64,000 bases of DNA from Bdellovibrionota bacterium (lineage in GTDB: Bacteria; Bdellovibrionota_C; UBA2361; OMII01): the NCBI GenBank assembly GCA_044351885.1, contig JBILEW010000011.1, positions 2,180-66,179 of the forward strand, in the 5' to 3' direction. Below the pieces are notes generated by a model. It was given only the letters and a program-made list of their open reading frames with translations. It did not search any database and had not been told where the DNA came from. The first letter of the stretch is position 1, and the number at the start of each line of letters is the position of its first letter. This document shows, piece by piece, positions 22,049 through 42,810 of this stretch. The position numbers and the translations under genes were made by a program.

Positions 22049-22222
22049 GGGAGCGAGGCAAAACCTGACACTCTCCCACGTGAACGTGCTCGTGCACCTG
22101 AACGTAAACGTACCCGGAACAAAAACATCAAGTTGTTCGGGCACGTGCACGTTTACGAGCACGAGCAACGTGCACGTGGTATGTCGAAAAGTGAGACCAC
22201 AGATAAGTTCTGCCTCGCTTCC
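22049..22222. repeat. palindromic MITE-like element, B-type copy (B1)
   Basis: About 90% identical to 35421-35600. Outer IR: ggagcgaggcaaaac ... gttctgcctcgcttcc. Hexamer-periodic arms: cacgtgaacgtgctcgtgcacctgaacgtaaacgtacccgg / cgggcacgtgcacgtttacgagcacgagcaacgtgcacgtgg. These flank the loop aacaaaaacatcaagttgtt. Confidence 0.8.
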
Positions 22223-22231
22223 TTAGCTACG

Positions 22232-22249
22232 AAAAAAAAGGGGGGGGGG
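22232..22249 (+). repeat. homopolymer junction A8G10
   Basis: Read directly: g aaaaaaaa gggggggggg c. It is intergenic, 10 nt downstream of element B1 and 189 nt upstream of the ATG at 22438. Confidence 0.9.
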
Positions 22250-28277: not shown

Positions 28278-28732
28278 TTTTGGCTCATTGTAGAATCGCG
28301 TGGGTGGTAACGAGGAAAGGGATAACATAAATACTTGTTTCGGCGCATAAATAGCGCCTTTTCACGTGAACGTGCTCGTGCACGTAAACGTGAACGTACC
28401 CGAATGAGCAACATTATTCCCTCCCGCCCCAACTAGAGCAGTATGCTCGACTATGAAAAATTAGACGTCTATCGAGCAGCGCTATTTCTCAACGGCACGA
28501 GGATCAGTGATGGAGTGTGGCGCCCTCTTTGATCTGTTAAACGCTCTAAGCTATGTCTCTCCCGACGAGTCTCGCGCGGATAAGCGTTTGCTTACAAGGA
28601 CTGCAGCCATGCTTTCTAAGCTATGCCCTCAGCCCGCATGAGACCTGTTTCGGGTACGTTTACGTTCACGTTTACGTGCACGTTCACGTCGGCATAACAC
28701 CTAGTCTTACCCACTCGATTCCGCGAACACCC
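28278..28732 (+). mobile_element. palindromic MITE-like element, A-type copy with four-helix-bundle gene remnant (A2)
   Basis: Outer IR: ggctcattgtagaatcgcgtgggt ... acccactcgattccgcgaacaccc. Inner hexamer-periodic arms lie at 28363-28404 (cacgtgaacgtgctcgtgcacgtaaacgtgaacgtacccgaa) and 28649-28690 (ttcgggtacgtttacgttcacgtttacgtgcacgttcacgtc). It is collinear with 38538-38980. Confidence 0.75.
28443..28641 (+). pseudogene. internally deleted and frameshifted four-helix-bundle protein gene (23S rRNA intervening-sequence protein family) inside element A2
   Basis: An N-terminal piece, MLDYEKLDVYRAALFL, is followed by a frame break. The C-terminal piece is ECGALFDLLNALSYVSPDESRADKRLLTRTAAMLSKL. 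These match the conserved ends of the family (KLDVY-KA ... GS--E---L---A--LGY------L---L--I-KML--L), but the central ~60 aa are missing. Confidence 0.6.
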
Positions 28733-33297: not shown

Positions 33298-33926
33298 CGA
33301 ACCCCTTTCAGGTTCACCCCCACTAGCTGAGATTCAAAGAGACGTCGATCTACCCTACGGAGAGTGCGCTCTTGTGCCACGCCCACAATGTCATAGTGTC
33401 GAGTCTCTCCCAAACGCTCCACAAGCAGGTCCCCTACCGCATCGTCGCACTCCCAATCGAGTCGCCGAGGATCGGGTAGCCGCAGTGGGCGCGAGAAGCT
33501 GCGCAGGGACTTCTCTCCCTTCATGTTGAAATAGAACTCGAAGTAAGAGACGACCAGCTCTCGTACATTCCGAAAGATAGGCTCGCGCAAGCGGAGCCCT
33601 GGAAAGTTCGACTTGGCAACCGCCCCCCAACGCCCTCGGTGTTGGTAGGCGCAGATCATGTGGTCGTCGTCACGCACGGCACACAGGTCGACCAAAAACG
33701 GAGTGAATCCGTGCCTTCGCAGCGCTGCGGCCGCCAGTAGCGAGCCGTCGAAACAGTGCGCGCGACCGTCCCTCAACGCCGCCCGGGCGGAGAGGTGCCC
33801 GTCTTCACAACGGTAGGGCAGTTTGTCCAGATAATCCTGCACAGCTGCGGGTGTCCGCATCTTGGCCAGCACACCGAGCTCTCGCTTTGTCCATGCAACT
33901 TCGAATGATCTCATATCCCACTTCAA
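33291..33926 (-). CDS. transglutaminase-like (papain-fold Cys/His) protein, hypothetical (211 aa)
   Basis: GRAHCFDGSLLAAAALRRHGFTPFLVDL...DDDHMICAYQHRGRWGAV fits the G-C--fa---a-lR--GiP-R ... H-w-e-----W transglutaminase-core pattern. Confidence 0.5.
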   Translation of the reverse strand: MKWDMRSFEVAWTKRELGVLAKMRTPAAVQDYLDKLPYRCEDGHLSARAALRDGRAHCFDGSLLAAAALRRHGFTPFLVDLCAVRDDDHMICAYQHRGRWGAVAKSNFPGLRLREPIFRNVRELVVSYFEFYFNMKGEKSLRSFSRPLRLPDPRRLDWECDDAVGDLLVERLGETRHYDIVGVAQERTLRRVDRRLFESQLVGVNLKGVRW

Positions 33927-33975
33927 CTCTTCTCGTGAAATGTCACACTAATAGCGCTCCATAACAAGAACCCCT

Positions 33976-34647
33976 ATGTTCACGTGCTTCAACGGTGATT
34001 ACAATCTTCACGTGAGGTCTCTATTCCTTCTTTTAGTTCTTTCTATAACCGTATCCCGACCGGCGTCGGCAAATCCCGTGAGCTTCAAGGGCGGCTACGG
34101 AGTCATGCCCGCGTACAACGACGACTGGTCGGACCTGCAAGTGAATTATTCTGTTACTAATCGCTACTCACTTGGAATCTCAAGTTTTTATCGAGAGGGC
34201 AAAGACAGTACCGCTACCTTCGGGCTAGGGCAGTTCAATTATCTCTTGAAACGCTGGAATGAATTAGATTCTCAAGCCAACGTCAATCTATCACTGGGGC
34301 TCGGAGGTAGACACGATTCACGCGACGATGGAGCCCTGGCTGGCTACGGTGCGCTCGAGGCAGACTATGAGACACGGCGATTGTATACTCAGCTATCGGC
34401 GGAGACGCTCCAATCGGAGGGGTCGGTGCAGTTCAACCGTATCAGAGGGCGTATCGGATTCACTCCGTACGTTGCGCCCTTCGATGCCCTCCAAACGTGG
34501 GTAGTATTGCAGGTGGACGAGATGCCCGAGATGGACGAGAGTTCTCGCGTGACACCCCTTTTACGCTTCTTCTACAACAACTTCGTACTCGAAGTCGGCG
34601 CGAGTTTAGAAGGTACGCCGTTTTTAGCTGGAGCTGCTCATTTTTAG
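33976..34647 (+). CDS. outer-membrane beta-barrel protein, hypothetical (223 aa; signal peptide probably starts at GTG 34012)
   Basis: Signal peptide RSLFLLLVLSITVSRPASA|NP, alternating amphipathic strands, and a C-terminal ...AGAAHF ending in Phe. Confidence 0.6.
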   Translation: MFTCFNGDYNLHVRSLFLLLVLSITVSRPASANPVSFKGGYGVMPAYNDDWSDLQVNYSVTNRYSLGISSFYREGKDSTATFGLGQFNYLLKRWNELDSQANVNLSLGLGGRHDSRDDGALAGYGALEADYETRRLYTQLSAETLQSEGSVQFNRIRGRIGFTPYVAPFDALQTWVVLQVDEMPEMDESSRVTPLLRFFYNNFVLEVGASLEGTPFLAGAAHF

Positions 34648-34657
34648 AGGTGACTGT

Positions 34658-34978
34658 ATGAAACAAATGCTCGTTCTCGCGACTACTGCGCTGTCGCTAT
34701 TAACAACCTTCCCCTTACCGGTACAGGCGGAACGCATATCGGTCTCCGTAAAAGGGATGGTGTGCTCCTTTTGCGCCCAGGGGATCAAAAAAACCTTTGG
34801 ACGCAAGGAGAGCGTCAAAGATGTTGCTGTAGATCTCGACACCAAGGTGGTGACGATCACCACCAAAGATGATGCCTCACTTCCCGACACTGAGATTCGA
34901 GAAAGTATAGTCGACGCCGGCTACGAGGTCGTGAAGATAGAGCGTACATCTGAACATGTGACGCACGTAGCTCAATGA
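34658..34978 (+). CDS. periplasmic heavy-metal-associated (HMA) domain protein, MerP/CopZ-like (106 aa)
   Basis: A signal peptide is followed by ISVSVKGMVCSFCAQGIKKTF (GMxCxxC metal-binding loop) and ...IVDAGYEV. Confidence 0.75.
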   Translation: MKQMLVLATTALSLLTTFPLPVQAERISVSVKGMVCSFCAQGIKKTFGRKESVKDVAVDLDTKVVTITTKDDASLPDTEIRESIVDAGYEVVKIERTSEHVTHVAQ

Positions 34979-35049
34979 TCCTCGTGTGCGCCTCCCTACA
35001 TACTCAACAGTCCTCGCTTTCGGAAGGCACCGTACTGAAGATATAGACG

Positions 35050-35415
35050 ATGCGGATCAAGCAGATACTCCCTTTCACAGCTCTCTTTTTCTCGTTGAGC
35101 ACCCTCGTGTGCTGCGCCCTCCCCGCACTTTTCGTTACCCTCGGCGCCGGGGCAACCTTCGTATCGCTGCTGGGCGTTTTTCCGCAATTGATCTGGTTCT
35201 CGGAACACAAAATAGCGGTCTTCTCCGTAGCTGCGATCCTCCTTGCGCTCAATTTCCTGCATCGGCGCCTGACTCCTCAGGAATGCCCAACCGATCCACT
35301 GCTCGCTCTTCAGTGCACCCGAGCGCGCAGAATCTCAGGAGTCGTTTCCGGGCTCTCGGTCTTCTTTCTCGTCGTGGGTGCTTTCTTCGCCTTCGTCGCG
35401 CCGTTGCTATGGTAG
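35050..35415 (+). CDS. MerT-like metal transport membrane protein (121 aa)
   Basis: TM1 has the vicinal Cys pair LSTLVCCALPALFVTLGAG (compare MerT ACCLGPLVLIALG). A second Cys pair lies in the loop after TM2 (LHRRLTPQECPTDPLLALQC). There are three TM helices and the size is the same as MerT. Confidence 0.6.
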   Translation: MRIKQILPFTALFFSLSTLVCCALPALFVTLGAGATFVSLLGVFPQLIWFSEHKIAVFSVAAILLALNFLHRRLTPQECPTDPLLALQCTRARRISGVVSGLSVFFLVVGAFFAFVAPLLW

Positions 35416-35420
35416 AGGGC

Positions 35421-35600
35421 TAGGGAAGCGAGGCAAAACCCTACACTCTACCACGTGAACGTGCTCGTGCACCTGAACGTAAACGTACCCGGAACAAAAA
35501 CATCAAGATGTTCGAGCACGTGCACGTTTACGAGCACGAGCACGTTCACGTGGTATGTTCGAAAGTGGGACCACAGGTAAGTTTTGCCTCGCTTCCCTAG
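35421..35600. repeat. palindromic MITE-like element, B-type copy (B2)
   Basis: Perfect 20-nt terminal IR: ctagggaagcgaggcaaaac ... gttttgcctcgcttccctag. Hexamer-periodic arms: ccacgtgaacgtgctcgtgcacctgaacgtaaacgtacccgg / gagcacgtgcacgtttacgagcacgagcacgttcacgtgg. Paralog of 22049-22222. Confidence 0.85.
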
Positions 35601-35611
35601 GGGAGGAGAGG

Positions 35612-35637
35612 CGAAACCACGCGAACGCGTGGTTTCG
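35612..35637. terminator. GC-rich palindrome/hairpin between convergent genes (no U-tract)
   Basis: cgaaaccacgcg aa cgcgtggtttcg has perfectly complementary 12-nt halves. It lies between the merT-like 3' end (with B2) and the 3' end of the minus-strand REC-kinase gene. Confidence 0.35.
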
Positions 35638-35655
35638 TTGAGCAGTTGGGCGCAA

Positions 35656-36855
35656 CTATTGAGTATGAACCTTCGGTAGGAAAAACTTGAACGAGGTTCC
35701 CGCGCCCGCCTTCGACTCGATGTGCAACCAACCTCCGTGAGCTTGCGTAACGCCGTGGGCCACGGCTAGTGCGAGTCCCAAGGCGTGCGTGTCACCATCC
35801 GTGAGATCGGCCGGTCGGTGCGCGTCCCGGATCTCTTCGTCCGTCATTTCACGACCACTCCCATGAATATCTATTACTACGAACGAGTCCGGGACAGCGC
35901 GGGGGTTCTGCAGATTCGATGCCTTGATGTATTCACTCTCCGCATCTATCGTGATGGTGCCCTGACCATCGATCAGTCGCTGCGCATACAGAAGAACTCC
36001 CACAACGGCATTCCGGAGAGCTTCTTCGTCGACGAATACGGCCATATCCTCCCTGATTGAGCGAACATCGAAGGAAACACCGGGCTTCTTGAGCTTCGAA
36101 AGGCCCTCCACTGCTCGAGCGATGACATCGGAGATTCGTTCCACCCCCAACTCCCGTGGCCCCTGTTGCGATGCCCACAACAGCTTCTGAACGAACAGCT
36201 TCTGCTCGTAACACCCCTCTAGTGCGAGTTTGACGTAACGATCTTCCAACGCTTGAAGAGTACCGCAATGCGCCAGCCAATCGAGATAACCCATAACTCC
36301 AGCAAGTGAGTTGTTGATGTGGTGCGCGATGCTACCGATAACGCCGCTGAGATCCTCCATCCCTGCCGTCGGCGATGGTGGGTGCTCCGACGGCGGACGC
36401 GGTTGTTCCTCCTCACCTCCCACACCCAAACGTGTGAGCATGGACGAGTACGCATCGAGCTCCTCGCGCAGATCTTCTTCGACCTGGTGCTGCGCCATCC
36501 CAAATTCGATGGCGAGTTCGAGCTCCTGATCGTCGATCGGCTTCACCAGATATGCCAGGGGATGCGCAAGTCGCGCTTGATTAATCGTCTCGTGATCGGC
36601 AAATGCCGTCAGAAAGATCGAAGGTATGTGGAAGCTTCTCTGTAGTACGTCAGCGACTCGCGTACCCGGTACGCCCCCGGAAAGCTTGATGTCCATGAGC
36701 ACCAGATCGGGCGCGAGGTTCTTCGCCATCGCTACGGCCTCGCCGCCCGAGCCAGCAGTCCCCACTACGCGATGTCCCATGCGCTCCAAGCGTTCCTTCA
36801 ACTCGAGAGCAAAGAGCCGCTCGTCCTCACATACTAATATCTTCAAAGGCTCCAT
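35656..36855 (-). CDS. hybrid response regulator receiver + histidine kinase protein (399 aa)
   Basis: REC: KILVCEDERLFALELKERL...DLVLMDIKL. HisKA-like H-box: IAHHINNSLAGVMGYL. HATPase end: GGWLHIESKAGAGTSFKFFLPK. Confidence 0.85.
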   Translation of the reverse strand: MEPLKILVCEDERLFALELKERLERMGHRVVGTAGSGGEAVAMAKNLAPDLVLMDIKLSGGVPGTRVADVLQRSFHIPSIFLTAFADHETINQARLAHPLAYLVKPIDDQELELAIEFGMAQHQVEEDLREELDAYSSMLTRLGVGGEEEQPRPPSEHPPSPTAGMEDLSGVIGSIAHHINNSLAGVMGYLDWLAHCGTLQALEDRYVKLALEGCYEQKLFVQKLLWASQQGPRELGVERISDVIARAVEGLSKLKKPGVSFDVRSIREDMAVFVDEEALRNAVVGVLLYAQRLIDGQGTITIDAESEYIKASNLQNPRAVPDSFVVIDIHGSGREMTDEEIRDAHRPADLTDGDTHALGLALAVAHGVTQAHGGWLHIESKAGAGTSFKFFLPKVHTQ

Positions 36856-36862
36856 AGCACGC

Positions 36863-38410
36863 CTATGCTATCGCTTCAGTCGGATCTACAGTATGTTCTC
36901 GCGTTGCCCCCGGCTTCTCGAATGGGAATTCGAACCGGAATACCGCTCCCCCTTCATTTACTACGGTGAGTTTAGCGTTCAACTGCTTACAGAGGGTCGC
37001 AACCACTCGCAGACCAAGGGTTGTAGGATTCTCGACATCGACCTCTTTCGGTATACCAGAGCCTTTATCAGACACCGTCAGCTCGGCCGTGTTTGCTTTC
37101 TTACGAAGCGTCAGAGAGAGAGAGAGAGCTCCGTCTGCTCCGAGTCCGTACTCGATCGAATTGGCAATGAGCTCATTGAGTATGAGACCACTCGGAACCG
37201 CCTTGTCGATAGAGAGATCCATTGCATCGAGATTCATCTCCAGTTTGACCTTTCGCGGATCCGATATGTGAGAGCGCACCAACTGCTTCGTAAGCTCGGA
37301 GACATAACCGTCGAAGCTGATACGAGAGAGGCTCTCCGAGCGGTACAGCTTTTCGTGTACCAGCGCCATGCATTTTACGCGATCCTCACTGCTTCTAAAC
37401 ATAGCCCGAGCGGGCCCCTCAGGCACATAACCGGACTGGAGACGTAAAAGGCTACAGATAATCTGTAGATTATTTTTTACTCGATGATGGACCTCTTTGA
37501 GCAACAGCTCCTTGTCTGCAAGAGATTGCGTGAGCCTCTCCTGAGCCTGTTTCTTTTCGCTCATATCACGCGCGATTATCGACAGACCTGGCTTACCATC
37601 CGAGAGCTCCGTGACTGGCGAGATGAACAACCACACCGGCACCTCAGTCCCGTTCTTGCGTGTGCACTGCACCTCGAACTGAGCACACTCGTAGGGCGAA
37701 GCCATAGATTGCGAGATTCGGTCGACCACATCTGAGCCGTTCGTGGAGAGTAGCGAGCCTATCGAGTGGCCGAGCGCTTCTGCCTCTGTAAAACCGAAGA
37801 GTCTCTCGGCAGAAGGATTCCACTCCCAAACCTCACCACTCGACTCGATACCGATGATAGCATCCTGGGAGTTGTCTACGATCGATGCCAGTCGCGAAAC
37901 CTTGAGCTTCGCCTCCGATATCTCCGATGCATGACGTGTCACCGTCTCTTGGAACAAAGCACGGCTCTTGCTGACCTCCTCCTCGGACACTCTCCGTTTT
38001 TCGATCTCCTCTTGGAGCGAACGCCTGGATGGCAACTTTACCAGCGTAGCAACAAGACCCCATGCCAGATACGCAGCGGTGATCGAGCCAACTAGTGTAA
38101 CTGATGTCAACCAGCCGATCTGGCTGTATGCCCCCTGCCACATCGACCATATCTCAACGAGATGTGAAGCGCCCGTCAACAGGAGAGCACATGCAGCGGC
38201 AGGTACTCGCCAATCACCGCGGAGCTCGGTACGTCGGCGTGCCAGGGTCAGCAACCCCAGCGCCAACGCGAAAAATGTACCGGTCGTGAGGATATCACCC
38301 ACGACCGAAAACACCATCAAGGTCGGGTGCTCAGAAGCACAACTGCTCGCTGTTAAGGCACTTTCAGTTACCATGAGGGAGCAGTATAACGAAGGCTCGG
38401 GATATCCCAT
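36863..38410 (-). CDS. membrane sensor histidine kinase with PAS domain and HisKA_2-type H-box (515 aa)
   Basis: N-terminal TM helices. PAS: IVDNSQDAIIGIESSGEVWEWNPSAERLFGFTEAEALGHSI. H-box: EVHHRVKNNLQIICSLLRLQ. ATPase: LNELIANSIEYG...DKGSGIP. Confidence 0.85.
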   Translation of the reverse strand: MGYPEPSLYCSLMVTESALTASSCASEHPTLMVFSVVGDILTTGTFFALALGLLTLARRRTELRGDWRVPAAACALLLTGASHLVEIWSMWQGAYSQIGWLTSVTLVGSITAAYLAWGLVATLVKLPSRRSLQEEIEKRRVSEEEVSKSRALFQETVTRHASEISEAKLKVSRLASIVDNSQDAIIGIESSGEVWEWNPSAERLFGFTEAEALGHSIGSLLSTNGSDVVDRISQSMASPYECAQFEVQCTRKNGTEVPVWLFISPVTELSDGKPGLSIIARDMSEKKQAQERLTQSLADKELLLKEVHHRVKNNLQIICSLLRLQSGYVPEGPARAMFRSSEDRVKCMALVHEKLYRSESLSRISFDGYVSELTKQLVRSHISDPRKVKLEMNLDAMDLSIDKAVPSGLILNELIANSIEYGLGADGALSLSLTLRKKANTAELTVSDKGSGIPKEVDVENPTTLGLRVVATLCKQLNAKLTVVNEGGAVFRFEFPFEKPGATREHTVDPTEAIA

Positions 38411-38537
38411 ACCCCAAACTCTTTCAAAAGCGCGAAAGAGCGTATCCGTTCAATCGAGAAATGACCAGGATCATACCTGCACCCGAAGATCCGCTATCGC
38501 CGCGGATCTGTATCGCTTTGAGTGCGCCGGTGTTGTA

Positions 38538-38980
38538 TTTTTGGCTCATCACGTTTTCGAGTGGGTCATAGCGAGCACAGAGATAGCGCAAGCTCTTGTT
38601 TTGACCTATAAATCGCGCCTTTCCACGTGAACGTGCTCGTGAACGTAAACGTGAACGTACCCGAACGAGCAACCTTACCTCTGCGCTCCGGAAATAGAGC
38701 AGCATTCTCGACTATAAAAAACTGGACGTCTATCGTACAGCGCCATTTTCTCAATAGCTTGGGGATCCGTCATGGAGTGTGGTGCCCTCTTTGATCTGTT
38801 AGACGCTCTAACCTATGTCTCTGACGGCCAGTATTGCGCTGGGAAGCGGTTGCTTACAAGGATTGCAGCCATGCTTTCCAATCTATGCCGTCAGCCCGCA
38901 TGACGCCTGTTTCGGGTACGTTCACGTTTACGTGCACGAGCACGTTCACGTGGACTACCCACTCGATTCCGCGATGACCC
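38538..38980 (+). mobile_element. palindromic MITE-like element, A-type copy with four-helix-bundle gene remnant (A3)
   Basis: Outer IR: ggctcatcacgttttcgagtgggt ... acccactcgattccgcgatgaccc. The inner arms at 38624-38665 and 38911-38952 are complementary over 42 nt with 1 mismatch. It is collinear with 28278-28732. Confidence 0.75.
38704..38903 (+). pseudogene. decayed four-helix-bundle protein gene remnant inside element A3 (start codon ATG changed to ATT, premature stop, same internal deletion as A2)
   Basis: ILDYKKLDVYRTAPFSQ* is followed by MECGALFDLLDALTYVSDGQYCAGKRLLTRIAAMLSNL. Roughly 80% nt identity to 28443-28641 by eye. Confidence 0.6.
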
Positions 38981-39017
38981 GTATTTTTCACGGGGCGTTC
39001 GCTCGCCCAACGGAGGT

Positions 39018-39530
39018 CTAGAGCGCCCTAGGAATCTGCCCCTGAATGACAAGCTGGGCCCCCTCGCTGACACCGACTTTTCTCATCGTTCCGCCGGCGA
39101 ATTCAAGCACGTAAAGACTTGGAGAATCCACATAACGAGAATCTTCGGTAAGGGGCGGAACGTTCTCGAGGATCCCAACGACCTTCATCTCTTTCGAGAC
39201 AAACACCATATCGAGCGGAATGAGAGTATTCTTCATCCAAAACGATTGGAGCTTTTCCTCCGGAAAGATGAACAGCATTCCGCTTCGTGCGCCCATTTCA
39301 CGTCGAAACATCAAGCCTCGCGCGCGCGTTGATGGTGTAGAGACCACTTCGACCTCGAACGAACGGATGCTCTGCCCGTCAGGTGCTACAAACTCTATCT
39401 CCACTGTCGGATGTTCGGGCTTCGGAGTACATCCTGCTACCGCGTACGCAACCGAGAAAAGGCAGAGCAGGAGACCGAGAAAGTCCCTCGAAACACGCAT
39501 CACGCGCCCTTCACCCGCTCCAGAGATCAC
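39018..39530 (-). CDS. DUF192 domain protein, secreted/lipoprotein-like (170 aa)
   Basis: RGLMFRREMGARSGMLFIFPEEKLQSFWMKNTLIPLDMVFV is the DUF192 signature. There is a 4-nt ATGA overlap with etfA. Confidence 0.75.
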   Translation of the reverse strand: MISGAGEGRVMRVSRDFLGLLLCLFSVAYAVAGCTPKPEHPTVEIEFVAPDGQSIRSFEVEVVSTPSTRARGLMFRREMGARSGMLFIFPEEKLQSFWMKNTLIPLDMVFVSKEMKVVGILENVPPLTEDSRYVDSPSLYVLEFAGGTMRKVGVSEGAQLVIQGQIPRAL

Positions 39531-40519
39531 GACGCTGCCTTGGCACTCTTACATGCATCGATCAGCTCGGGCACCGCCTGGAAGAGATCGGCAACCAATC
39601 CGTAATCGGCGACCTCGAAGATCGGTGCATCGGGATCCTTGTTGATAGCGACTATCACCTTCGAATCCTTCATACCAGCGAGATGCTGTATGGCTCCCGA
39701 GATCCCTACCGCTATGTAGAGCTTAGGAGCCACCACCTTACCGGTTTGGCCGACCTGCCAATCGTTGGGAGCGTAGCCCGAATCTACAGCGGCTCGAGAA
39801 GCGCCAACCGCTGCTCCGAGAGCGTCTGCTAGGGGGAAAACGACCTTCTCGAAGTTTTCGGCCGACCCCAGAGCACGACCACCACTCACTACGATCTCGG
39901 CATCTGAAAGCTCGGGGCGGTCAGCCTTGGACTGTTCATAGCCCACGACCTCACCGAAGCGCGGTTGCTCCTTCAGCTCCGGATCTCCCGATAGCGCCTG
40001 CTCAGACACCTGTCCTGCCGCCCCGTCCTTGATGGCTGGTCCGAAGGCCGTTCCCCGGACGGAAACGACTCGCGCCGTCGACAAGAGCTCCACGTCCGCA
40101 ATGATGTTCCCAGCATACATCGGTCGCTTCAGAGACCCATCGCTGTTGACAGCTATGATATCTGATGCCTGCCCTGCATCGAGCAGAACCGCCACACGAG
40201 GCAGCATATCCTTGCCCGAGCTACTAGCCAGCCCAACGACGACGTCACAGTTAAGCTCCTTGGCCGCAAGGGCTACCGCCCGAGCATACGGCTCGGCTCG
40301 AAACTTATCGAAGAGGGCATCTTCCGAGTAGCGCACACTCTCCACTCCGTACTGGGCCGCTTCCTGTGCTGCTGCTGCGGCACCTCGACCCAACACAACC
40401 GCGCATACCCCATCCTTGCCCCAACACTGTCGCAACTCCTTGGCTGCGGTCAGAGCACACAGCGACCCTTTGGCTATCTTACCACCGTCATGTTGCACGA
40501 ATACGAGAACCTTACTCAT
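39527..40519 (-). CDS. etfA: electron transfer flavoprotein alpha subunit
   Basis: [80 protein letters not shown]. Confidence 0.95.
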
Positions 40520-40531
40520 ATGCTGGAACTC

Positions 40532-41281
40532 CTACAGAACCTTGGCTTCTTGCTGCAAAGCGGCTACCAACTCAGTAACACTCGCCACCTTCTTGCCTGC
40601 CTTCCTACCGGTCGGCAGCGACATTCCTCGGACCCGTACCTTCACGTCCGCAGAAACACCGAGGGCCTCGAGCGAAAGCTCCTCGAACGGTTTCTTTTTA
40701 GCCTTCATCAGATTCGGCAATGCCGCATAGCGGGGCTCATTGAGGCGCAAATCTGTAGAGACGACACAGGGGAGCGGGACCTTGAGAGTCTCTAACCCTC
40801 CATCTATCTCGCGAGTAACGACTGCCGCGCCACCTTCCACGAGCACCTTCGAGGCGAAGCACGCCTGCGGGAGATTGAGGCGCCCGGCCAAGAGCTGTGC
40901 AGTCTGATTGGAATCCGAGTCGATGGCCTGCTTCCCCATGAGCACCATCGAATACTCTCCGCGCTTGAACACCTCTGCAACGACCCGCGAGGCGAGGTCA
41001 GAATCGACGGGACCATCGTGTTTGACGAGTATCGCCGAGTCAGCGCCCATCGCCAGAGCGTATTCGAGCCTAGCGCGCACATCTGCCGGGCCGATGCTTA
41101 CTAACACGATCTCCGAAGCGACCCCCTTCTCCTTCAATCGGATCGCCTCTTCGACCGCTATCTCATCGAAGGTGTTTAGGATCCACTTGATACCGTCGGT
41201 TTGGATACCGGATCCATCGGCCTGAAGTTTAAGCTTAATCTGCCAATCGGGAACTTTCTTTACTGGTACTAGAATCTTCAT
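40532..41281 (-). CDS. etfB: electron transfer flavoprotein beta subunit
   Basis: MKILVPVKKVPD...NTFDEIAVEEAIRLKEKG...VSIGP...ALAMGADSAILV...LMGKQAIDSDSNQTAQLLA. It sits immediately upstream of etfA. Confidence 0.95.
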   Translation of the reverse strand: MKILVPVKKVPDWQIKLKLQADGSGIQTDGIKWILNTFDEIAVEEAIRLKEKGVASEIVLVSIGPADVRARLEYALAMGADSAILVKHDGPVDSDLASRVVAEVFKRGEYSMVLMGKQAIDSDSNQTAQLLAGRLNLPQACFASKVLVEGGAAVVTREIDGGLETLKVPLPCVVSTDLRLNEPRYAALPNLMKAKKKPFEELSLEALGVSADVKVRVRGMSLPTGRKAGKKVASVTELVAALQQEAKVL

Positions 41282-41394
41282 GGCTAAATGTTACTCCAAG
41301 CCGAGGAGACTCTGCCAGGGCAATATTCCAACCGCTAGTTTTACTTAACGGCACCCGGGGACACTAGAAAACGGTTGTTGGATAAGCAGCACGA

Positions 41395-42810
41395 TCAATC
41401 CAGCGGGACCAAAGACTCCGAGAATGGCGGCCTGAGCAAGCGACTCCTTCCCACCTTAGCCGATTGAGCCAAGATCGGATGGGTCTTCTCTAGACGTGTG
41501 AGCTGATTGAGGTGATCAGCCGTCTGACTTACGAGGCGGGCGACGTCTCCGTCTGCTACACCAGAGAGCCTCAACAATCCCGAGAACTCCGCCCACGTCT
41601 CCGAATCCATCCATGTGATGACGGTGAGCGCCGCATCTGGAAGAACCTCGACCTCCGCCTTTCCCGGCCCATTGTACGAGTCCTTGATGCGCTGGACTAC
41701 CTCACGCATAGCATCGAAGAGCGCCGGCTTAATCGGATTCTGCTTGAGTTTGAAGTACGGTCGATGTGGGTCGCCTGCGATACTCGCAACGAGTCCGACG
41801 AGTTCGAAGAGCGCGCAATCGTCAAAGAGCTTTGAGTCGATGCATTCCCCCAGTTCGAGCACTAAACTCGTGCACAGTTCGGCGGCCCAAGAGCCCTTCT
41901 CCGTGAGCCCACCCCCTTCGACGTACCCGAGTGTCCTCAATCCATCGAGGGAGAGGTGCAAAGAGGTCTCCTGCTTCCGGTCCAATTCGTCCGCCTCTTT
42001 GAGAGTACGCCGCACTCTCTTCTCAGCCTTCTTTCGCTTCTCCCCCTTGAGCGACCCATCGGCTTCGATGCGCTGCTGTTCCTCTATCGCCTGCTCACGC
42101 AAACCGCTCGCGTTCTTGCGGTCGAGAAACGCCGCCAAACTGCGCTCGACCGTGTATTCGAGGTCGTCTACGTTGCGATACTTGAGGAGATTCAGCACAG
42201 TCGAGGGAGCTGCAAAGTATGCAGAACGGAGCGGCTCCGGCGGTCGCTTGGAGACCTCCAGCAGTACGCGTGCGTCCGAGAACTTGCTTGGCGTGATGAC
42301 ACACACCCCGACGGCATCCTTTCCTCGTCGTCCCGCACGTCCTGCCATCTGCTGGAACTCGGCTGCCGAGAGCACACTGAAACCTTCCGAACCTCGCTTG
42401 CTGTGCGCAGTTATCACCACGGTACGCGCGGGAAAATCCACTCCTGCTGCGACCGTTCCTGTCGCTATCATCATCCGCAACATGCCGCGGGACATGAGTT
42501 CCTCGAGCAGCAACCTCCAGATCAGAAGTTGCCCTGCATGGTGAGCTCCCACCCCAGTCGAGATCAACGCCTGGTATTGCGGATAGGTGGTGATGAACTC
42601 AGGCTCAAATTTGTACTTGTCTATGATCGCTTGAATCTCGCTCTGCAACCGCTGCTGTTGTGCTGCGGAGAGTATAGCGTTCTTGTTGCGCGCCACGCTC
42701 TCGACATCGGCATCGCACTGTTTACGCGCAGTGCGAAAGAGGATCGCCGGAAGGAGCTCGTCACGCTCAAGCTCTCGAAGAATGACGGAAACGGGGAATT
42801 CGACCTGCAT
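41395..42810 (-). CDS. Ski2/HelY-like DEVH helicase, C-terminal part (RecA2 lobe + helical/DSHCT-like region); the ORF track extends it to 42888, but the ATG at 42810 with an SD is the likely start
   Basis: LLPAILFRTARKQCD, GVGAHHAGQLLIWRLLLEELMSRGMLRMMIATGTVAAGVDFPARTVVI, FQQMAGRAGRRGKD. C-terminal segment: GDVARLVSQTADHLNQLTRL. Confidence 0.8.
   Translation of the reverse strand: MQVEFPVSVILRELERDELLPAILFRTARKQCDADVESVARNKNAILSAAQQQRLQSEIQAIIDKYKFEPEFITTYPQYQALISTGVGAHHAGQLLIWRLLLEELMSRGMLRMMIATGTVAAGVDFPARTVVITAHSKRGSEGFSVLSAAEFQQMAGRAGRRGKDAVGVCVITPSKFSDARVLLEVSKRPPEPLRSAYFAAPSTVLNLLKYRNVDDLEYTVERSLAAFLDRKNASGLREQAIEEQQRIEADGSLKGEKRKKAEKRVRRTLKEADELDRKQETSLHLSLDGLRTLGYVEGGGLTEKGSWAAELCTSLVLELGECIDSKLFDDCALFELVGLVASIAGDPHRPYFKLKQNPIKPALFDAMREVVQRIKDSYNGPGKAEVEVLPDAALTVITWMDSETWAEFSGLLRLSGVADGDVARLVSQTADHLNQLTRLEKTHPILAQSAKVGRSRLLRPPFSESLVPLD

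Follow-up and report, generated by a model that had tools for sequence, protein, structure and literature searches.

Two decayed copies of a putative ISL3-type MITE carrying a hairpin-flanked four-helix-bundle gene cassette in a Bdellovibrionota contig

The window analysed here, i.e. the whole stretch of 64,000 nucleotides from contig JBILEW010000011.1 of a Bdellovibrionota bacterium (assembly GCA_044351885.1), contains two related palindromic elements, indicated as A and B. They are best explained, with a probability that we set at about 0.8, as dead copies of a roughly 600-bp non-autonomous transposable element of the miniature inverted-repeat kind (MITE), of ISL3 type, named T1, whose cargo is a hairpin-flanked four-helix-bundle cassette. 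According to this model, the T1 shell has 24-bp terminal repeats and would duplicate 8 bp of AT-rich target, its transposase being supplied in trans; the cargo would consist of two 42-nt inverted arms, made of ACGT hexamers, enclosing a short leader and a 115-amino-acid (aa) gene of the PF05635/TIGR02436 family. As far as sequence comparison can tell, the arm-flanked gene is a conserved, widespread module.

A and B share a nested palindromic layout, as described in a previous sequence-only reading of the window and reported, with positions, in Table 1. Common 24-nt outer inverted repeats surround inner arms of 42–44 nt, composed of ACGT hexamers, and a core of about 245 nt, in which both ends of one PF05635/TIGR02436 gene are found. 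The arms are complementary for 88% of 42 nt in A and for 98% of 44 nt in B. When A and B are aligned, mean column identity is 85%, and the sequence outside both elements does not align. Chance is excluded as the origin of this repeat structure: in the whole window, 9 occurrences of an 18-nt arm word were counted where 0.06 would be expected, and for the outer repeat the corresponding figures are 4 and 0.02. Folding of the single-stranded RNA, which had been suggested as a check, yields the nested structure for both elements (z = -5.8 for A, -12.0 for B). If transcribed, the remaining stem of 42–44 bp would, by analogy with the intervening sequences (IVSs) of ribosomal RNA (rRNA), be expected to serve as a typical substrate of RNase III. 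The arms can be read as (Arg-X)n, in one frame per strand; being out of frame with the gene, with stops intervening, they are treated as non-coding.

Table 1. Position of the elements found in the window and of their parts.
Feature	Position	Strand	Remarks
Element A	28282-28732	+	read as a decayed T1 copy (ISL3-type MITE shell and arm-flanked four-helix-bundle cassette)
A, left terminal inverted repeat	28282-28305	+	24 nt, GGCTCATTGTAGAATCGCGTGGGT
A, 5' arm	28363-28404	+	7 hexamers: CACGTG AACGTG CTCGTG CACGTA AACGTG AACGTA CCCGAA
A, leader	28405-28442	+	GCAAC kept at 28408-28412; second box of promoter-like motif degenerate
A, N-terminal gene remnant	28443-28483	+	MLDYEKLDVYRAAL; ATG at 28443; closes with CAGCGCT 28477-28483 (deletion junction)
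A, C-terminal gene remnant	28484-28641	+	shifted frame, YFSTARGSVMECGALFDLL...LSKLCPQPA; stop 28639-28641
A, residual open reading frame	28510 (ATG)		43 codons
A, 3' arm	28649-28690	+	pairs with the 5' arm of A
A, right terminal inverted repeat	28709-28732	+	reverse complement GGGTGTTCGCGGAATCGAGTGGGT
Element B with target duplication	38535-38988	+	T1 element proper 38543-38980
B, target duplication	38535-38542 and 38981-38988		8 bp, perfect, GTATTTTT
B, 5' arm	38622-38665	+	44 nt
B, gene remnant	38704-38903	+	ATT at 38704-38706; junction CAGCGCC 38738-38744; stop 38901-38903
B, 3' arm	38911-38954	+	44 nt
Element C with target duplication	11941-12120	+	element 11949-12112, T1 derivative of 164 nt; duplication TTTATTTT
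Element D	22049-22222	+	T2 MITE, terminal repeat GGAAGCGAGGCAAAAC; central ACGT-hexamer hairpin, no gene
Element E	35420-35600	+	T2 MITE; element 35424-35596, CTAG duplication on both sides; same ACGT-hexamer hairpin

The shell is the part that links A and B to transposons. When all ends are aligned, the terminus consensus of T1 is GG(C/G)TC(A/T)TCG(T/C)GGAATCGAGTGGGT, within AT-rich flanks. Target duplications of 8 bp, with 7–8 of the 8 bp matching, border 8 of the 11 complete T1 copies, a level of agreement reached by only 2.7% of mismatched flank pairings. The duplication is perfect around B and around C, a shorter T1 derivative in the same window, while the flanks of an intact copy from another assembly (L085, see below) match in 9 of 9 positions (TTCAATAAT). 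The MITE-like behavior proposed by the sequence-only reading is thus supported by both terminal inverted repeats and 8-bp target duplications. The window contains three T1 copies, and dozens more occur in assemblies related to it; family members range from 147 to 600 bp and carry no transposase, their only open reading frame (ORF) being the PF05635 gene.

ISL3 elements feature 24-bp inverted repeats starting with GGCTCTTCG and produce 8-bp duplications (PMC6305408 Table 3; PMC11448079). The terminal repeat of one of them, ISArsp7, is GGCTCTTCGCGGTTGGTGGTGAAT (PMC6305408), and an ISL3-derived MITE with GGCTCTTCG termini is described in Microcystis aeruginosa (PMC11448079). T1 resembles these elements in its 24-bp terminal repeats, starting with GGCTC(T/A)TCG, and in its AT-rich 8-bp duplications; like ISL3-derived MITEs, it is devoid of a transposase gene and is present in many copies, with deletion variants. 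Unlike them, it carries a conserved passenger, a PF05635 gene flanked by the hairpin arms and provided with a promoter-like motif. Conservation is higher in the arms of this passenger than in the ends of the transposon. Because of these ISL3 hallmarks of the shell, T1 was most likely mobilized in trans by an ISL3-type transposase. One locus considered as a possible full ISL3 element (L073) was rejected, since an ordinary gene of kinase-like type lies there between two T1 relics that are distinct from each other. In another locus (L019) a run of nine C lies beside the T1 end.

Five related elements are found in the window, and no more: in addition to A and B, which were the two originally named, it contains C, D and E. 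All five are intergenic, amid ordinary chromosomal genes, their neighbors encoding a phosphodiesterase, a PAS histidine kinase, a DUF192 protein and similar products. No match and no rRNA were found when the window was analyzed with Rfam, at gathering thresholds, and by a tRNA scan. The location in ordinary intergenic DNA, next to protein genes, is therefore as originally stated. A and B are just 10 kb apart, and the short hairpin forms are similar in size and intergenic location to REPINs, the hairpin-forming doublets of repetitive extragenic palindromes (REP). A segmental duplication, or REP/REPIN-type hairpins spread by a REP-associated tyrosine transposase (RAYT), might be invoked on these grounds; either is very improbable. 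No relationship is seen between the flanks of A and those of B, which already refutes a segmental duplication, part of the outcome that the sequence-only reading had named as fatal to its proposal. B and C each have an 8-bp duplication, differing in sequence, and no such duplication is made by REPINs; no RAYT-like gene adjoins any copy, the arm-flanked gene being PF05635 and not an HUH transposase.

The core had been read as a decayed four-helix-bundle gene, and profile searches agree. The C-terminal frame (ARGSVMECGALFDLL...LLTR.AAML) matches PF05635 (E 1e-4 to 4e-4) and TIGR02436 (E 6e-4 to 9e-4) only, over profile positions of about 57–106. Since half of the protein is missing, the fragments score below the curated cut-offs, with 17.6–20.1 bits for TIGR02436 (cut-off 24) and 19.8–22.9 bits for PF05635 (cut-off 33.8); intact relatives score 64–81 bits with TIGR02436. 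A protein reconstructed from the window fragments is 73–82% identical to intact 115-aa proteins, all of them PF05635. For one of these (P0003), four helices are predicted, at residues 4–26, 32–54, 58–84 and 90–112, with a predicted local distance difference test (pLDDT) value of 92.8. By template modeling (TM) score, the predicted fold is close to those of XCC0516 (PDB 2GSC; 0.88), BT_0352 (2RLD; 0.87) and Avd, the protein of diversity-generating retroelements (DGRs; about 0.8). In the intact genes the ratio of nonsynonymous to synonymous substitutions (dN/dS) is 0.06–0.12, with synonymous sites near saturation, which indicates purifying selection. Scores, fold prediction and dN/dS together identify the intact protein as a functional PF05635/TIGR02436 family member. 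Searches of the PADLOC and PHROGs libraries (defence and phage) with the intact proteins gave no match.

The gene copies of A and B, in contrast to the intact ones, are both deleted at the same junction, as first noticed in the sequence-only reading. About 149 nt are absent relative to the intact element, and the frame is shifted; comparison of L054 with the window sequence indicates that the deletion was flanked by two 7-bp direct repeats, CAGCGCT. The residues lost are those of about 15–64: helix 1 lacks its end, helix 3 its beginning, and helix 2 is missing entirely. With helix 2 gone, neither copy is able to form the four-helix bundle: both are pseudogenes, which encode nothing functional now. 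Of the further damage attributed to B, the loss of the start codon is real, ATG being replaced by ATT; the extra stop is found only in the N-terminal frame past the junction, where A soon stops too, and adds little.

Further copies, among which an intact master copy was to be expected according to the sequence-only reading, are in fact numerous. When species-representative genomes were scanned for the arm word, at least 79 loci were identified, mostly in Bdellovibrionota metagenome-assembled genomes, many of them at contig ends. An intact T1 of 600 bp is found in L085 (2340–2939), complete with both terminal repeats, duplication, both arms and a full 115-aa gene (P0008); L086 resembles it. In viral contigs, the arm word matched twice, by chance and within coding sequence, and no element was detected. 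The T1 family includes at least five types of internal deletion: the window type, at the CAGCGCT repeat; a junction between EFVITTIE and MECGAL (L071); one between EFVIT and RARGS (P0062); one between AEGAGK and LLLTR, at an AGKL-codon repeat (P0044, L054, L079); and the collapse of the hairpin into forms of 147–164 nt. Several variants are found at more than one locus, as is a deletion of the leader (L033, L021). Since variants are multi-locus, and the short 147–164-nt forms have perfect duplications, deleted derivatives do transpose.

Insertion polymorphism is evident from a Lake Mendota Bdellovibrionota assembly (L044, JBIIOE010000047), syntenic with window positions 33442–41551 at about 80% nucleotide identity. 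B and E are absent there at the orthologous sites, and a T2 element, belonging to a second type of MITE described below, is present where the window has none. This bears on the idea of hairpins domesticated by the host for a structural or regulatory role, for example as bidirectional terminators or mRNA-processing sites, where the gene remnant is just filler. The intergenic location of all five elements, with A, C and E between convergent genes, would suit such a role, as would very stable stems and highly conserved arms. We consider it improbable, given the differences in presence at orthologous sites, the position of D between divergent genes and of B beside a gene start, and the target duplications and star-like decay, typical of a transposon. 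Moreover, a scan for sigma-70 promoters and terminators around A was negative for both, and no U-tract is present.

The arms turn out to be more than a detail of the window copies. Between genomes, T1 identity is 86–98% in the arms, 67–92% in the termini, 46–75% in the spacers, 50–79% in the leader and 76–87% in the gene. By these figures, the arms are the best-conserved segment, apparently under stronger constraint than the gene itself. The hexamer vocabulary (CACGTG, AACGTG, CTCGTG, AACGTA) is retained also in homologues only 49–57% identical, which were found via the protein and not via the arm. A scan of metagenome contigs by protein gave 80 loci, at 46–99% identity, 70 of them with usable flanks. 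A significant inverted repeat brackets the gene in 50 of the 70; period-6 NNCGNN arrays are found on both flanks in 47, and on at least one flank in 65. Their density in the flanks is 7.96 per kb, as compared to 0.94 per kb in the remainder of these loci. The hexamers vary by locus (TCGTCC, CGTGCG, GACGGC and CGTGAG are examples), the two arms being complementary within each. Between unrelated metagenome loci, homology stops about 80–115 nt upstream of the start codon and 45–100 nt after the stop, that is, at the outer arm ends. A strict search revealed no ISL3-like termini around the 80 metagenome cassettes, pointing to a T1 shell specific to this lineage. An attempt to relate protein clusters to hexamer vocabulary was uninformative, as single linkage merged nearly all proteins.

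In L119 (230–950), and similarly in L129, the palindrome reaches more than 150 nt past the hexamer arms on both sides, with the gene at the center. In L146 (2780–3560), from an AT-rich host, hexamer arrays (CGTGCT, CGTACA, with CGTTAAA breaks) flank the gene over more than 200 nt per side, far exceeding the length that a simple stem needs. In L091 (1960–2175), a distant homologue (P0048) is not bracketed by arms, and a long hairpin of a different repeat (CCCTTCCCCTTACCC / GGGTAAGGG) lies downstream.

A second conserved feature is located upstream of the start codon, in the interval that follows the 5' arm. The motif VAAC-N15-YCGAHA-N7-8-start is present in 27 of the 51 unique upstream regions, as compared to 0.02 in shuffled sequences. 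Its form GCAAC-N14/15-(G)CCGATA ends 7–8 nt before the start (L095–L174; also L085, 2463–2500). It resembles promoters of the sigma-28 (TAAA-N15-GCCGATAA) or extracytoplasmic function (ECF) type, and may thus be described as promoter-like. A Shine-Dalgarno-like sequence is found in only 6 of the 51 regions; this scarcity, together with the position of the motif, suggests a leaderless mRNA. In the window copies GCAAC is kept and the second box is degenerate.

The same hairpin is also found in other shells. D and E, the T2 elements of the window, have at their center the ACGT-hexamer hairpin which, in T1, brackets the four-helix-bundle gene. T2 features exact 4-bp YTAR duplications in 9 of 12 copies, including the non-palindromic CTAA and TTAG on both sides; D is flanked by CCAG and TTAG, a degenerate YTAR duplication. 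YTAR is the target motif of IS5 (PMC5009759). T2 is similar to IS5-type MITEs in its terminal repeat, starting with GGAAG, and in the direct 4-bp YTAR duplication (CTAA, TTAG, CTAG), and differs from them in having T1's ACGT-hexamer hairpin at its center and in one copy being inserted into the four-helix-bundle gene. The gene lies there inside T1, and the insertion is at its LPRG codons, with the sequence TTCC-TAGA-GGAA (L054, 1–640; L072, 3802–4100), and the resulting T1::T2 composite is present at several loci of one assembly (L054, L072, L079). In L079 (763–1203) a derived form is seen, where recombination between two 5' arms removed the intervening part. In L075 (3930–4110) the ACGT-hexamer hairpin is found within a third type of outer inverted repeat (ATCGGAGACTGTA / TACAGTCTCGGGTAT), suggesting at least three different shells. 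The flanks of L080 weakly resemble a degenerate T2 shell. In L087–L089 the cassette has no shell at all, starting 16 nt past one gene and ending 24 nt before the next.

A number of observations weigh against the T1 model, or against parts of it. No recognizable target duplication is left around A (TGAATTTT vs TTCATATG). No ISL3-family transposase motif was found in the window and in about 0.6 Mb of related loci, by a crude regular-expression scan which is a weak test. Only 3 derived substitutions are common to A and B, as compared to 23 and 17 private ones, and the two share no more of them than either does with L071, whose deletion is different. With so few shared substitutions, the deletion is left as the single character arguing for descent of A and B from one deleted source; since its junction lies within a 7-bp direct repeat, it may have arisen independently in each. 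Finally, the occurrence of the same arms in T1, in the IS5-type T2, in the third shell and without a shell indicates that the cassette may have a mobility of its own, beyond that provided by T1.

The doubt about the shared deletion leads to the suggestion that A and B were deleted separately, by slippage or recombination between the CAGCGCT repeats, after full-length insertion. Besides the position of the junction and the lack of an excess of shared derived substitutions, the recurrence of deletions in the family, one of them at another repeat, speaks for it. Other deletion variants are, however, clearly multi-copy, namely the T1::T2 composite and the leader deletion; two identical events in one 10-kb neighborhood are less parsimonious than one; and no full-length T1 copy is found in the window. 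We regard separate deletion as rather unlikely. Copying of a single deleted source to a second site is the simpler reading, and probably the correct one; the sequence-only reading went further, taking the shared deletion to imply it, an argument weakened by the direct repeat at the junction and by there being three shared substitutions only. In the T1 model, loss of the segment between the repeats, with the frame shift, would thus have come first; the deleted form would probably have been copied to a second site, where B keeps its perfect duplication, and each copy would later have gained private substitutions, which amount to 5–7% per copy. The pattern is star-like, each copy having apparently decayed separately from a source near the family consensus.

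The last doubt concerns the moving unit. The arm-flanked cassette could itself be mobile, with the hexamer arms as its termini and the T1 and T2 shells as landing sites or later vehicles. The variety of shells and the shell-less cassette would be explained in this way, as would the end of homology at the outer arm ends in unrelated metagenome loci and the high conservation of the arms. For the shell-less cassette, on the other hand, neither a target duplication nor matched empty and filled sites were found; the single ORF of the element encodes a helical bundle of 115 aa, which contains none of the known nuclease or recombinase motifs; and in the window copies it is the T1 termini, and not the arms, that the duplications border. 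In addition, all short T1 forms keep arm remnants, indicating that the cassette was present in the T1-family ancestor, and was not inserted repeatedly. Autonomous movement of the cassette is, in our view, possible, if on balance doubtful, and for A and B transposition within the T1 shell is preferred.

The sequence-only reading also drew a parallel with the IVSs of 23S rRNA. These are defined as insertions in rRNA helices, bordered by a stem and excised by RNase III (PMC4990558); in 23S rRNA the helices concerned are 9, 25 or 45. Some rRNA IVSs carry a PF05635/TIGR02436 gene, as in Leptospira and Coxiella (PMC4990558). The family has also been noted in rRNA insertions of the candidate phyla radiation (CPR) and between cmr genes. 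The window elements share with rRNA IVSs the stem-plus-gene layout, the arms of A and B forming a bordering complementary stem-loop; an ORF prone to reductive decay, as reported for Coxiella (PMC4990558); and the view of the element as selfish. They differ in being located between protein genes and not in rRNA, and in being nested in a DNA-transposon shell. Their arms are built of phased hexamers. About 170 related loci were inspected, and none of them has rRNA as a neighbor; the resemblance to 23S IVSs is in gene family and stem layout, with no link to rRNA found in these loci.

XCC0516 (2GSC) is a homopentameric toroid (PMC4990558), and five chains per entry are found in all three solved examples, XCC0516 (2GSC), BT_0352 (2RLD) and Avd (4DWL, 8UB7). 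Intact relatives of the window gene have the same fold as Avd, with a sequence identity of only 9–10%; Avd, for its part, belongs to an RNA-protein complex. A DGR was considered for the window and rejected, since neither a reverse transcriptase nearby nor a direct repeat of the template/variable repeat (TR/VR) type is present.

These elements may be combined in one joint reading, which we offer tentatively. The cassette would be an undescribed, widespread module, a free-living counterpart of the ORF-bearing rRNA IVSs, with the arrays as specific recognition sites of the ring-shaped protein that it encodes, or of a partner. It may comprise a PF05635 gene, with pentameric solved relatives, an internal sigma-28/ECF-like promoter, a leaderless mRNA and inverted CG(T)-phased hexamer arrays; each subunit may read one hexamer, by analogy with the trp RNA-binding attenuation protein (TRAP), which reads spaced triplets; and the module may spread alone or in the shells of MITEs that belong to two or more transposase families.

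There are thousands of PF05635 "IVS proteins", which occur within rRNA insertions, in positions between cas genes and, as Avd, in DGRs. In the locus described here, a concrete carrier of the cassette is seen at the DNA level, namely a MITE of ISL3 type that makes target duplications, and the cassette is shown to live outside rRNA. For this gene clade a general rule emerges: inverted CG-phased hexamer arrays bracket the gene, together with a conserved promoter-like motif. The family thereby becomes testable, for pentamer binding to the arrays, for RNase III cutting and for arms as the ends of a mobile unit. The main value lies in a conserved architecture of the cassette, apparently not described before, in a large protein family; the searchable literature yielded no account of copies carried by MITEs or of arms with phased hexamers.

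The arms are also of practical concern, as they break metagenome assemblies at many sites. In a 70-kb ENA contig (NODE_906; L082/L083) at least 7 identical tandem copies of the 115-aa gene, with hairpins, are repeated with a 700-bp period, while in a JGI contig from a similar genome (L084) there is a single copy, the contig ending just past the gene. The tandem may be an assembly artefact, generated by the palindromic repeats, or a real array.

Of the remaining window elements, C lacks the 5' arm and the gene, and keeps a remnant of the leader (CCCTAAATAGA) and, from the 3' arm, the final 14 nt. Its interpretation as an "empty" T1 site was rejected because of these remnants, which mark it as a further deletion derivative. 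Few bases past D, a homopolymer pair, A8 followed by G10, is located at 22232–22249.

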